Shown piece by piece: positions 15,433 to 23,400 of a DNA stretch of 64,000 nucleotides (within the stretch, counting starts at the first letter, position 1; each line of letters begins with the position of its first letter). The notes beneath the pieces are model-generated. The model was not told the DNA's origin. It worked only from the letters and a program-made list of their open reading frames with translations, and searched no databases. Both the position numbers and the translations under genes were made by a program. Source of the DNA: an uncultured delta proteobacterium. GTDB lineage: Bacteria > Desulfobacterota > Desulfomonilia > Desulfomonilales > Desulfomonilaceae. The stretch is taken from NCBI GenBank assembly GCA_963760985.1, contig CAVXFM010000010.1:388430-452429 (forward strand), given 5' to 3'.

Positions 15433-16482
15433 TCATCCCACGGCCCGTTCCTTCACATCTTCGCGGATTCTGCCGAGCACGGGGACCAAATCCATAAAAC
15501 ATTCGAAAATGCGGGACCCGAAATAGTCTCCTCCTGCTGCCATCATGATAGAAAGGGCCTGTGTCTCGGGGATCGCTCGACGGTACACTCTATGGTGAAC
15601 CATTGCATCATAGACGTCCACTACGGCCACGATAGCTGCAGAAGCAGGTATTTCTTCACCAGTCAGTCCTCGAGGGTATCCGGACCCGTCCCACCGCTCG
15701 TGGTGAAACAAAGCGATCTCTCTTGCCATTTGAATCAGCGGCACCTGTGATCCGTCAAGGATGTCGGCTCCAATTGCCGCGTGAGTCTTCATGATCTCGA
15801 ATTCGTCTACGGTCAGTTTGCCGGGCTTGCGGAGGATCGAATCGGGAATCCCGATTTTCCCGACATCATGCATGGGAGCTGCCAGACGAATTTGTTCAAC
15901 GGCTTCACGGCTCCATGCAAGGGCTCGGGCCATCTCTGCGGAGTAGAGCCCGATTCGCCGCACATGGGCTCCAGTCTCGTCATCACGGGATCCGGTTGCA
16001 GAAAGCAGCCGGAGGATGATTTCCTCTTCTCTTTGCCTTACTTCCTTGGTTCTTTGGAGGACCTGGGCCTCGAGTTCCCGCTCGTAATCGCGACTCAGAA
16101 GCAGCAAGCGACGTCGCTCCAGCGCGTTGACGACGGATATGATGATTTCATTGCGTTCAAAAGGCTTGGTGACATATCCGTATGCCCCGAGTTCAAGTGC
16201 GATGATGGCCGTTTTTCTGTCATCCACGGCTGTCACCATTATGACGGCAATGTCCGGGAACAAAGGCTTCATGACCATCAAAAGATCCATTCCGGACATG
16301 CGAGGCATCATGATGTCGCTCACGAGCAGATCGAACTTTTCTCCGTTCAAGAGTTCGAGTGCGGTTTCGCCGTCTGCCGCGGTGGAGCATGCATAACCTT
16401 CCGCACTAAGCCATCGTTTGAGCAGATCGCAGATGTAAGGCTCATCGTCCACTATGAGGATTCTTGCTGGTCGCTCTTGCAT
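15433..16482 (-). CDS. response regulator with HD-GYP c-di-GMP phosphodiesterase domain (RpfG-like)
   Basis: Receiver ILIVDDEPYICD...VSDIMMPRMSGMDL...YVTKPF followed by HD-GYP signatures (HDVGKIGIP, HHERWDGSGYP). Confidence 0.9.
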   Translation of the reverse strand: MQERPARILIVDDEPYICDLLKRWLSAEGYACSTAADGETALELLNGEKFDLLVSDIMMPRMSGMDLLMVMKPLFPDIAVIMVTAVDDRKTAIIALELGAYGYVTKPFERNEIIISVVNALERRRLLLLSRDYERELEAQVLQRTKEVRQREEEIILRLLSATGSRDDETGAHVRRIGLYSAEMARALAWSREAVEQIRLAAPMHDVGKIGIPDSILRKPGKLTVDEFEIMKTHAAIGADILDGSQVPLIQMAREIALFHHERWDGSGYPRGLTGEEIPASAAIVAVVDVYDAMVHHRVYRRAIPETQALSIMMAAGGDYFGSRIFECFMDLVPVLGRIREDVKERAVG

Positions 16483-17021
16483 AAGCCGTCGTACCTCCGC
16501 GCACAGACTCCGGTGACGTCGTTACCACGTGGGGAAAAAATAACTCAAGTTTGGTGTGGTGCCAATGGTTCATCGGCTTCGTGGTCTTGACCTCGTGTCG
16601 AGCTGCGCCCATACTTTACCGATTTGAGGGCTCCAAACCCTGTATTCGGTAACGCGAAAAAATGCGTTCGCGCACAGGATCATAGCCGTGGCGAAAATTC
16701 TTGACCTCATTGGCTCGACCTTCGCAGGAACGAACCGATGAGGAACACGGGGGGGCAGAAAATCCCTCCTATTTCGCGCGACACCATGCCGTCGAATCTT
16801 CGTGCAGACTCCCCCTGCACCATCTCCTGAAAGCTCGAGTCATCCGGTCAGAATTCTTGGCAACTGCCGTAAGTCAAGCTGAGAAAGGCTCTACAGACAG
16901 GTCCGCGTCAACGGCGTGTACCATCCCCCGTTCGAACAATCACAAGCTTTTCTAAGGAATTGTCGTGTGAGATACGGTCGTGATCGTGGAAGCACAGGTC
17001 ATGCCACCGAGGCCCGCAAGG

Positions 17022-17396
17022 TCACTTTTCCCCGAGAGCCTCGCTCACTACGTCCAACAACTCTTGCCTGGTGAATGGTTTGGCGAGCGCTTTCACCGCG
17101 CCCAGGCTCTTGGCTAAATGCAGGCAGGTGGCTCCGGTTGTCGCTTGTCCCCCACCGGAAATCGCCACTATCTTCACTGCGGGGAACTCTCGCCTGAGTT
17201 CCATTATGGTTTCGATGCCCTCTTTTTCCGGCATGATGATGTCAGTAATAATGAGGTCTGGACGATTTTCACGGTACAACTTCATACCGACGTTGCCGTC
17301 GGGGGCCTCGATCACTTGGTAACCGGCCTGAGTCAGAATACGTCCGCAAAGGGTCCGAATGGCAGCTTCGTCATCTATGACCAGAATCGAACTCAT
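17022..17396 (-). CDS. single-domain response regulator (CheY-like)
   Basis: MSSILVIDDEAAIRT...IITDIIMPEKEGIETI...KIVAISGGG...AKPF. The longer ORF 17022..17654 has a non-homologous 5-prime extension. Confidence 0.8.
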   Translation of the reverse strand: MSSILVIDDEAAIRTLCGRILTQAGYQVIEAPDGNVGMKLYRENRPDLIITDIIMPEKEGIETIMELRREFPAVKIVAISGGGQATTGATCLHLAKSLGAVKALAKPFTRQELLDVVSEALGEK

Positions 17397-17527
17397 ATCC
17401 GGCCGATCCTTTCGCCAACGCGTTTCTTGCGTTGTGGACTTTGCGACTGGGGCTTGTACCCCGCTTCCGCAACGCGAAAGAGTCACTCTCCGGGTGAGGC
17501 CCAGTAACACCACGACAGTCGGTGCGC

Positions 17528-22000: not shown

Positions 22001-22471
22001 GCCTGCTTTCTGGGATCGCAGGAGAGATTGTCGAAAATGGCCAGTGACCTCTGCAACGTCGTCTGGGTGGATGATTTCTTGGAACAGCTTTGGCCTGGCG
22101 AGAAACTCCTCCGCAGCGTACCCTGTCACTGCTTTGCATGACGGAGAAACCCATAGGAACGTTCCGTCCACATCGGTCCACGATTCCCAGTCATGGGTGA
22201 AGTCCGCGACCGTCCGGTAACGCTTTTCGCTTTCCATCAAGGCCAGTTCTGTGGCCCGTTGGCGAGCAAAAGTCCTTGAGACGATCAGGCCAAACAATAA
22301 AAAACACAGCGTCACCACAGACCGCAGGTACAGCGCGTGGGGAGACACATCGAGGATCAGGGAATTCCAGAAGGATTTTTCGTGGAACGCGACTGATTCG
22401 AGAATCGCGTCACTCACACAAATCAGGAGAAAGAATGCTACTGCCAGACCAATTGCCCTACATGGTTTCAT
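19034..22471 (-). CDS. membrane-anchored multi-PAS hybrid histidine kinase with two receivers and an Hpt domain; at least 3 apparent frameshifts
   Basis: ORF 20270..22540 has 2 TM helices, 3 PAS domains, HisKA ([14 protein letters not shown]) and the HATPase N/G1 boxes, then loses homology after STSRK. The G2 box ([26 protein letters not shown]) sits in a second frame near 20290-20400. Two REC domains lie in ORF 19491..20333. The REC end plus Hpt (HSLKGS) lie in ORF 19034..19651. Confidence 0.7.
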
Positions 22472-22695
22472 AGCGAGTTCTCCGTTACGAAAGACGTTCC
22501 GCATCTCCCCCCCCTGCGATTGCGGTGACCGTGGGATCACCGGTTTCGGAGTACCTGTTCATATCCTTCAATTTCATCCCTCGTGCGACTTGAACGAACG
22601 CAGCAGATCTGAGAGAGTCGTCCTTCCCGGGAGGTCCCTCCGTCAGCCACGCGGGAGTCGGGAAGACCATGATTCCATGAAGCCACGAGTCGCTT

Positions 22696-23400
22696 TTATT
22701 CCCAGACCGCTGGTCCGCCGCGTTTCTTATCAGTCTTGACTTTGGCGAATACGACTCCGCAATACGGGCACGAATCAGCATATTCGTCAGGTCTCGGTCT
22801 TCCGCATTTTGGGCAGGGCCCCTCGGAGTGTCCGCGCCGAGATCCCTGTGAACCGGCTCGTGGATCTTCGGAGGGGAAAGGCCCGTCCACCACCCACGAT
22901 TCCCGTTTCGCGGCGAGCGAGCGGACAGGCACGTCCTCGATCTTGCGGTAATCCTCCAGTGCGCCGGACAATTCTTGGGTGAGATCGATCGCGGTGGAAT
23001 CTTCGATCTCAGGAAGTTCCATCTGGTGCAGTTCGGCACACTTCCGCTCCCGGTGGTGGAATTCGTATTCACTCAGCACGCGTTTTGCCAGGAGTTGCTC
23101 GTACACACTCTTCAGGAGTTCCGGACTGAGCGAATACCTTTTCATGAGCGCGAAATCGTCCGGGGTCGCACGAAAGGTTTTAATGAAATCTTTGGCACTA
23201 ATGGAGATCCTTTCGGACACAGGACAGCCATTGGTGGGTTCCGCCTCGTAAGCAGGGGTTGAAGTTAATTTCCGAACCGCAGATTTCACTTTTGGCAAGC
23301 TGCGCACCGAGAGTCCGTATTTCTCCATGAGTGCGGCGTCGGCCATGCCTGCCTCGATATCCGCGAGGATCGCCCTGGCGCTAATGCGGATGTGCTTCAT
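22696..23400 (-). CDS. zinc-ribbon protein with two copies of the LMEKYGLS motif (uncharacterised)
   Basis: ATG 23400 with GGAGGG upstream. ILADIEAGMADAALMEKYGLSVRSL and FIKTFRATPDDFALMKRYSLSPELL repeats. C-terminal CPKCG...CPYCG zinc ribbon. Confidence 0.5.
   Translation of the reverse strand: MKHIRISARAILADIEAGMADAALMEKYGLSVRSLPKVKSAVRKLTSTPAYEAEPTNGCPVSERISISAKDFIKTFRATPDDFALMKRYSLSPELLKSVYEQLLAKRVLSEYEFHHRERKCAELHQMELPEIEDSTAIDLTQELSGALEDYRKIEDVPVRSLAAKRESWVVDGPFPSEDPRAGSQGSRRGHSEGPCPKCGRPRPDEYADSCPYCGVVFAKVKTDKKRGGPAVWE

Follow-up and report, generated by a model that had tools for sequence, protein, structure and literature searches.

A conserved phosphorelay and c-di-GMP gene cluster in an uncultured delta proteobacterium and the three-helix module shared by two of its predicted proteins

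Introduction

A 64-kb stretch of DNA (64,000 nucleotides (nt); contig CAVXFM010000010.1, positions 388,430–452,429 of the forward strand), termed here the window, comes from an uncultured delta proteobacterium of the Desulfomonilaceae and carries six consecutive minus-strand genes that are predicted to encode a zinc-ribbon protein, a hybrid sensor kinase with a histidine phosphotransfer (Hpt) domain, a REC-GGDEF diguanylate cyclase, a PilZ protein, a CheY-like receiver and a REC-HD-GYP response regulator. A first-pass annotation proposed that these genes form a self-contained module that makes, breaks and senses cyclic di-guanosine monophosphate (c-di-GMP). The locus raises the question of whether all six genes belong to one circuit fed by one phosphorelay, or whether some of them are neighbors that stand outside it.

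The cluster is a real, conserved and conventional phosphorelay-to-c-di-GMP module. It is read here, with moderate confidence, as a lineage-specific (Desulfomonilaceae-type) phosphorelay operon that would convert a cytoplasmic signal sensed by PAS domains into local c-di-GMP, the HD-GYP gene being separate and the frame breaks seen in the kinase gene being most likely consensus errors.

Gene order and the conserved core

Genes were called from an open reading frame (ORF) listing and three-frame translation, and domains were assigned with Pfam. All six genes are found at the positions where the first-pass annotation placed them (Table 1), and Pfam upholds its domain calls for the REC-GGDEF, PilZ, CheY, REC-HD-GYP and zinc-ribbon proteins, the last by a weak match. 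The kinase and cyclase genes overlap by 38–53 nt, the cyclase and PilZ genes are 26 nt apart and the PilZ and CheY genes 131 nt apart. The zinc-ribbon gene is separated from the kinase gene by 224 nt, and CheY from the HD-GYP gene by 539 nt. Residues D13, D57, T/S87 and K109 are present in all five receivers of the cluster. The window contains at least nine receiver-containing genes, and because two-component genes are this dense, adjacency alone is weak evidence for a unit.

Relatives of the PilZ protein were compared, and a genome collection was scanned for them with an alignment of six close sequences. The locus L001, on a 273-kb metagenome contig, displays the identical six-gene order with an intact kinase gene, and its PilZ protein is 81% identical to that of the window. 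L013, from a Desulfomonile tiedjei bin (PilZ 67%), has zinc-ribbon, stand-alone Hpt, REC-GGDEF, PilZ, CheY and hybrid kinase genes in that order. Its Hpt ORF (positions 1860–2351 of L013) encodes 163 amino acids (aa) that still begin with a remnant of the second receiver, and the hybrid kinase downstream of CheY (positions 4330–9546), a PAS/PocR protein of 1738 aa, ends in a receiver and has no Hpt domain. As judged from this arrangement, L013 is a split version of the relay in the window. L012 (PilZ 67%) shows GGDEF, PilZ and CheY genes followed by the same sensor kinase as in L013. In L014 (PilZ 58%) a kinase gene with an Hpt domain is followed by PilZ and CheY with no cyclase gene, and in L016 likewise the PilZ gene is directly behind the kinase gene with no cyclase between them. 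The CheY gene lies behind the PilZ gene in L001, L012, L013 and L014, and the zinc-ribbon gene is kept upstream of the relay in L001 (74% identity) and L013 (60%).

Synteny thus supports a predicted core that consists of the zinc-ribbon protein, the Hpt domain (fused or free), REC-GGDEF, PilZ and CheY; it does not support inclusion of the HD-GYP gene. The proposal that an Hpt relay is tied to a REC-GGDEF cyclase, a dedicated PilZ reader and a CheY protein is backed by the order kept in L001 and by the split Hpt of L013. Farther out, the neighbor of distant PilZ homologues (35%–57% identity) varies and is often a GGDEF, GGDEF-EAL or kinase gene, and no c-di-GMP enzyme is adjacent to the PilZ gene in L003, L009 and one 6.6-kb contig.

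The cyclase and the PilZ protein

The cyclase displays a GGEEF active site with an RSYD (RxxD) inhibitory site (I-site) five residues upstream, in the sequence RSYDVVGRYGGEEF. It scores 172.6 bits against TIGR00254 (cut-off 37.4) and shares 82% identity with its orthologue in L001. The protein contains one receiver, and its score against the PleD family model NF007135 of NCBIfam (REC-REC-GGDEF) is 253 bits, below the cut-off of 474.

The PilZ protein matches Pfam PilZ (PF07238) at residues 95–185 with 22.8 bits and an E-value of 1.2e-4, the cut-off being 22.5 bits; several homologues also carry PF07238. An alignment of 21 homologues shows that the RxxxR motif is R71-E-I-T-R75, in which R75 is invariant and R71 is at least 90% conserved. 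The second motif is D98-I-T-E-K-G103, with D98 and G103 invariant and T100 at least 90% conserved. Serine variants occur in the family, i.e. the canonical DVSEHG in one orthologue and DVSRKG in a fused paralogue. Threonine in place of serine is a conservative change that may or may not affect binding.

The AlphaFold model of the protein (predicted local distance difference test (pLDDT) score of 78) shows a three-helix bundle at residues 9–45, a disordered segment at 58–72, strands at 83–159 and a helix at 161–174. The linker that bears RxxxR is modelled as disordered or flexible and precedes the beta-barrel. In a Foldseek search of the PDB with this model, hits 1–38 are all PilZ proteins, the best being MotI (5vx6, E-value = 5e-6), followed by VCA0042, Alg44, YcgR, MapZ and MrkH, and many of these 38 structures were solved with c-di-GMP. 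By its modelled fold the 178-aa protein is a true PilZ domain protein, which together with the conserved RxxxR and DxTxxG motifs bears out the earlier label of PilZ-like protein. The protein is predicted to bind c-di-GMP.

The PilZ family defined by these sequences is small and is found in bins of Desulfomonilaceae, Syntrophales and other organisms labelled "delta proteobacterium". Its members always carry one to four three-helix modules of the kind found at the N-terminus of the window protein. A by-product of the analysis is a defined, uncharacterized PilZ subfamily with a DxTxxG motif. Duplications are seen in this family: L014 has three tandem PilZ-family paralogues on the opposite strand (positions 2699–5744, minus strand) just upstream of its kinase-PilZ-CheY genes, and L003, L020 and L021 each have two side-by-side copies.

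Related to possible function, the PilZ protein could be a feedback adaptor instead of an output reader. In its c-di-GMP-bound form it would attach to one of the receivers of the kinase, the cyclase or CheY and control phosphotransfer, in the manner of HapZ and SagS. All close relatives have the PilZ gene set among genes that encode receivers, in L014 and L016 this gene comes right after the kinase gene, and binding of a PilZ adaptor to the receiver domain of a kinase has a precedent in HapZ (bioRxiv 10.1101/2020.02.11.943704). HapZ, however, is a single-domain protein, and the constant presence of extra modules in the window's family does not fit that pattern. In addition, a response regulator encoded in the locus L017 (described below) has the module as its only component besides the receiver, and there the module looks like an output domain and not a receiver-docking surface. 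The adaptor role is considered quite improbable, and the protein is treated in what follows as a predicted c-di-GMP reader.

The hybrid kinase and its frame breaks

The first-pass annotation described a single hybrid kinase gene with two receivers and an Hpt domain. The domains are confirmed after reconstruction; the single ORF is not, and the coding sequence in the window is interrupted by three 1-nt insertions. The region is divided into ORFs of 756 aa (20270–22540), 280 aa (19491–20333) and 205 aa (19034–19651), with a short piece in a further frame. The 205-aa ORF has an ATG start and covers the tail of the second receiver and the Hpt domain.

Deletion of one base per break site gives a protein of 1144 aa with the complete domain order (Table 1). 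A short loop connects its two transmembrane (TM) helices, and the three PAS domains are cytoplasmic. Pfam scores of the reconstructed protein are 81.5 bits for HisKA, 108.7 for HATPase_c, 176 for Response_reg (in two stretches) and 50.3 for Hpt. The H-box SHEIRTP, the GGTGLGL motif and the Hpt motif HSLKG (HxxKG) are present, and both receivers have D57 and K109.

The L001 orthologue is an intact gene of 1144 aa with about 82% nt identity to the window. A global alignment of the two sequences over 3.4 kb shows three gaps and no others, all of them single nucleotides inserted in the window. In a tblastn search the L001 protein maps on the window to frames −1, −2, −3 and −1. The shifted segments keep 82%–84% identity to L001, each in its own frame, and contain no in-frame stops. 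Programmed frameshifting was rejected, as it would require three sites within this one gene, similar breaks are also found in unrelated genes and the orthologue is a plain ORF.

Comparison with L001 and three-frame reading reveal at least 12 frame breaks in the window, among them breaks in a GAF-PAS kinase gene near the cluster, an ankyrin gene and the genes for a CPBP protease, a UbiD-like decarboxylase and a class A penicillin-binding protein (PBP). Consensus indel errors in the metagenome-assembled contig are the likeliest cause of the kinase breaks and are regarded as probable. This is because the breaks fall in unrelated genes while identity to the orthologue stays normal in the shifted segments, and because the genomes of relatives are bins from uncultured bacteria whose contigs bear assembler-style names.

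If the breaks are real, the kinase gene would be a recent pseudogene, as would the ankyrin gene and the GAF-PAS kinase gene. The cluster would then be decaying, or reduced to an Hpt-only relay in which another kinase feeds the Hpt domain of the 205-aa ORF, as in L013. The distribution of the breaks agrees with this and weighs against an error in the consensus: they are concentrated in particular genes, with six to nine in three of the 13 genes for which L001 serves as a reference and the remaining ~7.8 kb free of them, a clustering with a probability of about 0.008 under a uniform error rate (authors' own calculation). The indels also do not lie in long homopolymers, an ATG-started ORF spanning the Hpt domain is at hand, and L013, which naturally lacks the kinase body and keeps the Hpt ORF with its receiver remnant, shows that the lineage tolerates loss of the kinase body. 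Yet the breaks in the PBP, UbiD-like and CPBP protease genes fit a poor consensus better than selective gene loss, and the shifted kinase segments show neither stops nor a drop in identity to L001. Each of the three events in the kinase gene adds a base, whereas mutation in bacteria usually favors deletion, and the remaining genes of the cluster are intact. Decay of the kinase gene is considered unlikely, and consensus error is retained as the preferred explanation.

Essentiality of the split PBP was also looked at as an argument for error. It is weak, since the gene lies outside any mre or dcw cluster and its neighbor encodes a trypsin-like protease. Regarding use of the contig, its many frame-breaking indels mean that automated annotation will fragment long genes.

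The HD-GYP gene and its spacer

The REC-HD-GYP protein matches HD_5 with 111.7 bits and HD with 76.4 bits in Pfam, and its translation contains MHDVGK and HHERWDGSGYP. Its score against the NosR-family NCBIfam model NF053512 is 207.5 bits, below the cut-off of 400. Its identity to the orthologue in L001 is 92.5%, compared with 74%–82% for the core genes, which suggests different constraints. The gene is found in this position in the window and in L001; it is not at the equivalent position in L012, L013 and L014.

The spacer between the CheY and HD-GYP genes is 539 nt in the window and 308 nt in L001, the difference being a stretch of ~230 nt (16700–16930). No second copy of this stretch was found in the window or the fetched loci, and the idea of a repeat or mobile element was dropped. 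A promoter-like sequence, TTGGCA-17-TATTTT, is present at 16565–16537 just upstream of the HD-GYP start and is conserved between the window and L001. The spacer also has a weak terminator-like hairpin at 16675–16662. The scan for promoters and terminators gave no excess over the shuffled expectation (3 vs. 3.7 and 9 vs. 8.6), and the TTGGCA-17-TATTTT site is retained as the only lead from it because of its conservation in L001. A sigma-54 promoter upstream of the gene was rejected by inspection, as TGGCAC is present and the −12 element is absent. A search of Rfam over positions 12000–26000 found no family at E ≤ 0.1, and a known c-di-GMP riboswitch in the spacer is ruled out at this sensitivity.

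The HD-GYP gene is probably a separate transcription unit that encodes an orphan response regulator. Of the proposed self-contained module to make, break and sense c-di-GMP, the conserved core is supported and the HD-GYP gene is not, in view of its L001-only adjacency, its spacer and its own promoter-like site; that the same Hpt domain feeds the HD-GYP protein within one unit is unsupported for the same reasons.

The full model of the first-pass annotation has the single Hpt domain phosphorylating both REC-GGDEF and REC-HD-GYP, which would give opposing or pulse-generating control of c-di-GMP. The HD-GYP gene is indeed the next gene on the same strand, in L001 as well as in the window; its receiver has all phospho-acceptor residues and its putative transcription unit contains no kinase gene. 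Hybrid kinases with Hpt domains do feed REC-HD-GYP regulators, e.g. RpfC-RpfG (PMC3749722). L017 offers a further parallel, as it has an HD-GYP-type receiver gene ~1.4 kb upstream of its PilZ-family orthologue and divergent from it, with a module-PilZ-zinc-ribbon gene between the two; this receiver is 42% identical to the N-terminal part of the window REC-HD-GYP. Speaking against the model are the spacer and promoter-like site, the latter conserved in L001, and the lack of the gene at the equivalent position in three loci that keep the rest of the core. Furthermore, with so many receiver genes in 64 kb a neighboring response regulator is expected by chance, and the higher conservation of the HD-GYP protein sets it apart from the core. 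The model is doubtful; sharing of the cluster's Hpt domain by the HD-GYP protein is possible in view of the RpfC-RpfG precedent and draws no support from this analysis. The separate HD-GYP gene remains the preferred reading.

The three-helix module and the zinc-ribbon protein

A module of ~48 aa is present once at the N-terminus of the PilZ protein (window positions 17909–18064) and twice in the zinc-ribbon protein (23068–23400), at residues 1–48 and 61–111 of the latter. The zinc ribbon itself, CPKCGRPRPDEYADSCPYC, is at residue 196, and homologues of the protein begin with MKHIRIS. The motif that the first-pass annotation noted as common to both proteins is real. A BLASTP comparison of the PilZ protein with the two zinc-ribbon protein copies gives E-values of 7e-6 and 0.01, and a profile hidden Markov model (HMM) of the module finds the copies in both proteins with i-E values of 1e-17 to 1e-20. 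Within the window the profile HMM confines the module to these two genes.

The link between the two proteins is stronger than had been proposed, as shown by a fusion in L017, which is from a Syntrophales bin. Here a gene at 285–1166 (minus strand) encodes a receiver with two modules, and a gene at 1684–2559 (plus strand) encodes the module, a canonical PilZ domain (with RSQLR and DVSRKG) and a CxxC...CxxC zinc ribbon in a single protein. The genes next to these two encode an orthologue of the PilZ family and a PocR sensor. From the module-PilZ-zinc-ribbon fusion it appears that the zinc-ribbon protein of the window is functionally tied to the PilZ protein, and the fusion of a receiver to two modules suggests that the module acts as an output domain.

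A census with a profile of 25 module copies (E ≤ 1e-3, 1.84 billion proteins) returned 2,718 representatives of 50%-identity clusters, with one to seven tandem copies each. The partners of the module, in 147 of the top 148 hits, include PilZ in 18, pentapeptide repeats in 14, ankyrin in 5 and zinc ribbons in 3–6 for each of three models. The copies in the window have no match that reaches any Pfam threshold. Matches to DUF433 (PF04255) below threshold are seen in 7 of 27 isolated modules (best E-value = 0.0012), and 42 of the 147 multi-copy relatives cross-match DUF433 (best E-value = 1e-10). DUF433 is classed as a three-helix bundle that binds DNA or RNA (PMC2701414).

The isolated module is modelled as three helices with a pLDDT of 84. 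Searched by sequence against solved structures, it gave chance matches only; its structural neighbors are mostly helix-turn-helix DNA-binding domains, none of them significant (all E > 1). The module resembles DUF433/COG2442 (PDB 2GA1, a predicted DNA-binding antitoxin) in that a three-helix bundle is predicted, here in ~48 aa. It differs in that it is repeated in tandem and joined to PilZ domains, zinc ribbons, receivers, pentapeptide repeats and ankyrin repeats and not as an antitoxin associated with PIN.

The module may be an undescribed and widespread signaling output domain that in this cluster turns c-di-GMP binding and phosphorylation into one action, either by binding DNA or RNA or by pairing of the modules of the PilZ and zinc-ribbon proteins as a partner switch. 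This is offered as a speculative suggestion, more probably wrong than right. Should the module bind DNA or RNA directly, the PilZ protein would represent a new class of c-di-GMP-dependent regulator. No curated family is devoted to the module, and it is the only part of the cluster with a real potential for novelty.

Proposed signaling path

The steps that follow are all inferred, from gene order, domains, motifs, the PilZ fold, conserved synteny and domain fusion. The membrane-anchored hybrid kinase with its three PAS domains would autophosphorylate, and phosphate would pass from His to Asp to His and end on the kinase's own Hpt domain. The Hpt domain would then phosphorylate the receiver of the translationally coupled REC-GGDEF protein and turn on c-di-GMP synthesis, with feedback by way of the RxxD I-site. 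It may also phosphorylate CheY, which would serve as a sink for phosphate or as a second output. The c-di-GMP would be read by the PilZ protein, whose gene lies between those for the cyclase and CheY, and the three-helix module of this protein would relay the signal, probably together with the zinc-ribbon protein, by protein-protein contact or nucleic-acid binding. The REC-HD-GYP protein is placed as a phosphorylation-controlled phosphodiesterase in a separate unit, a recent neighbor that could receive phosphate from this Hpt domain or from another kinase.

Apart from the uneven distribution of frame breaks, several points count against this account. The full cluster including the HD-GYP gene is seen in just one other genome, L001. 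The Pfam score of the PilZ domain is barely over the threshold, and its second motif has threonine where the textbook [D/N]xSxxG has serine. In addition, partner specificity between an Hpt domain and receivers is not predictable from domain content.

Positions of features and neighboring genes

Table 1. Features of the cluster, frame breaks in the kinase region and other broken genes in the window. Positions are those of the window.
Feature	Position	Strand	Description
Zinc-ribbon protein	22696–23400	−	234 aa; two ~48-aa modules and C-terminal CxxC-N12-CxxC; weak Pfam Zn_ribbon_3
Hybrid sensor kinase region	19034–22471	−	2 TM, PAS×3, HisKA, HATPase, REC, REC, Hpt; in three frames
Frame break 1	20445–20449 (~20447)	−	HATPase, between F box and G2 box; GAAAGGTAC vs. 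GGAA-GTAC in L001
Frame break 2	20310–20325 (~20320)	−	Linker between HATPase and first receiver; GTGTGGCAAAAAG region
Frame break 3	19620–19632 (~19625)	−	Within second receiver, past MDGLEATR
REC-GGDEF diguanylate cyclase	18091–19086	−	Pfam Response_reg 102 bits, GGDEF 158 bits
PilZ protein, c-di-GMP receptor candidate	17528–18064	−	178 aa; Pfam PilZ 22.8 bits
CheY-like single-domain receiver	17022–17396	−	124 aa; Pfam Response_reg 88 bits
CheY/HD-GYP spacer	16483–17021	−	539 nt
REC-HD-GYP response regulator, putative c-di-GMP phosphodiesterase	15433–16482	−	Pfam Response_reg 105 bits, HD_5 112 bits
GAF-PAS kinase, near cluster	10680–12527		Two 1-nt indels vs. L001
Ankyrin gene	13633–14785		At least three indels vs. 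L001
CPBP protease	41787–42548		Broken within EELFFRG (~42045)
UbiD-like decarboxylase	~50620–52060		Spread over three frames
Class A penicillin-binding protein	57384–60354		Broken within QGGSTITQQ and again in the transpeptidase domain

Three observations concern the surroundings of the cluster. A 71-aa ORF lies between the HD-GYP and ankyrin genes (14863–15075, plus strand); it shares 82% identity with the corresponding ORF of L001 and matches nothing in Pfam. An ORF of 399 aa between the zinc-ribbon and PadR genes (23823–25022, plus strand) is extra with respect to L001 and has no match in Pfam or NCBIfam. At 26150–26379 the window is without the ModA-type periplasmic binding-protein gene (SBP_bac_1/SBP_bac_11) that L001 has between the PadR gene and an ABC permease gene (BPD_transp_1).

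Significance and comparison with known systems

If the core works as proposed, it would be a compact case of local c-di-GMP signaling, with adjacent genes for sensor, cyclase and reader, in a group of poorly studied anaerobes known here only from metagenome bins. The relatives provide natural variants to guide experiments, i.e. a fused kinase-Hpt, a split Hpt with an Hpt-less kinase and a cyclase-free version. Circuits of the same logic are already well known from Borrelia, Xanthomonas, Caulobacter and Pseudomonas, and the cluster would leave the thinking of the field unchanged.

With respect to the cyclase, PleD and WspR are closest, as in them too a receiver controls a GGDEF cyclase that combines a GG[DE]EF active site with an inhibitory RxxD motif. 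The window cyclase has one receiver, in contrast to the REC-REC arrangement of PleD. WspR is fed by WspE, a CheA-like kinase, whereas the window cyclase would be fed by a hybrid kinase with an Hpt domain.

HapZ (PA2799) of Pseudomonas aeruginosa, with SagS and HptB, is similar in that a PilZ adaptor is functionally within a hybrid-kinase/Hpt phosphorelay. The likeness is one of role: HapZ is a single-domain PilZ protein that binds a receiver, while the window protein has an N-terminal module and a zinc-ribbon partner that shares it. Surveys note di-domain PilZ proteins with DNA-binding domains.

In the RpfC-RpfG system of Xanthomonas a hybrid kinase (core, REC, Hpt) acts on a REC-HD-GYP phosphodiesterase, and RpfG also works with GGDEF and PilZ proteins (PMC3749722). 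The rpfG and rpfC genes form one operon, whereas the HD-GYP gene of the window is behind a spacer and is syntenic in the closest relative only. An operon of this type for the window kinase and HD-GYP genes is unlikely because of the 539-nt spacer and the promoter-like site. RpfC also has a membrane domain that senses the diffusible signal factor (DSF), where the window kinase has three PAS domains.

The system closest in logic is Hk1-Rrp1-PlzA, together with PdeB, of Borrelia burgdorferi. PlzA is a dual xPilZ-PilZ protein, which differs from the three-helix module and PilZ domain of the window reader. The Borrelia genes for the reader and the phosphodiesterases are at other loci, PdeB lacks a receiver, and Hk1 senses by periplasmic domains in place of the three cytoplasmic PAS domains of the window kinase. 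The likeness is in the design, where a hybrid kinase with REC and Hpt domains is in an operon with a phosphorylation-dependent REC-GGDEF protein, a PilZ protein reads the c-di-GMP formed and an HD-GYP protein degrades it (PMC4013479).

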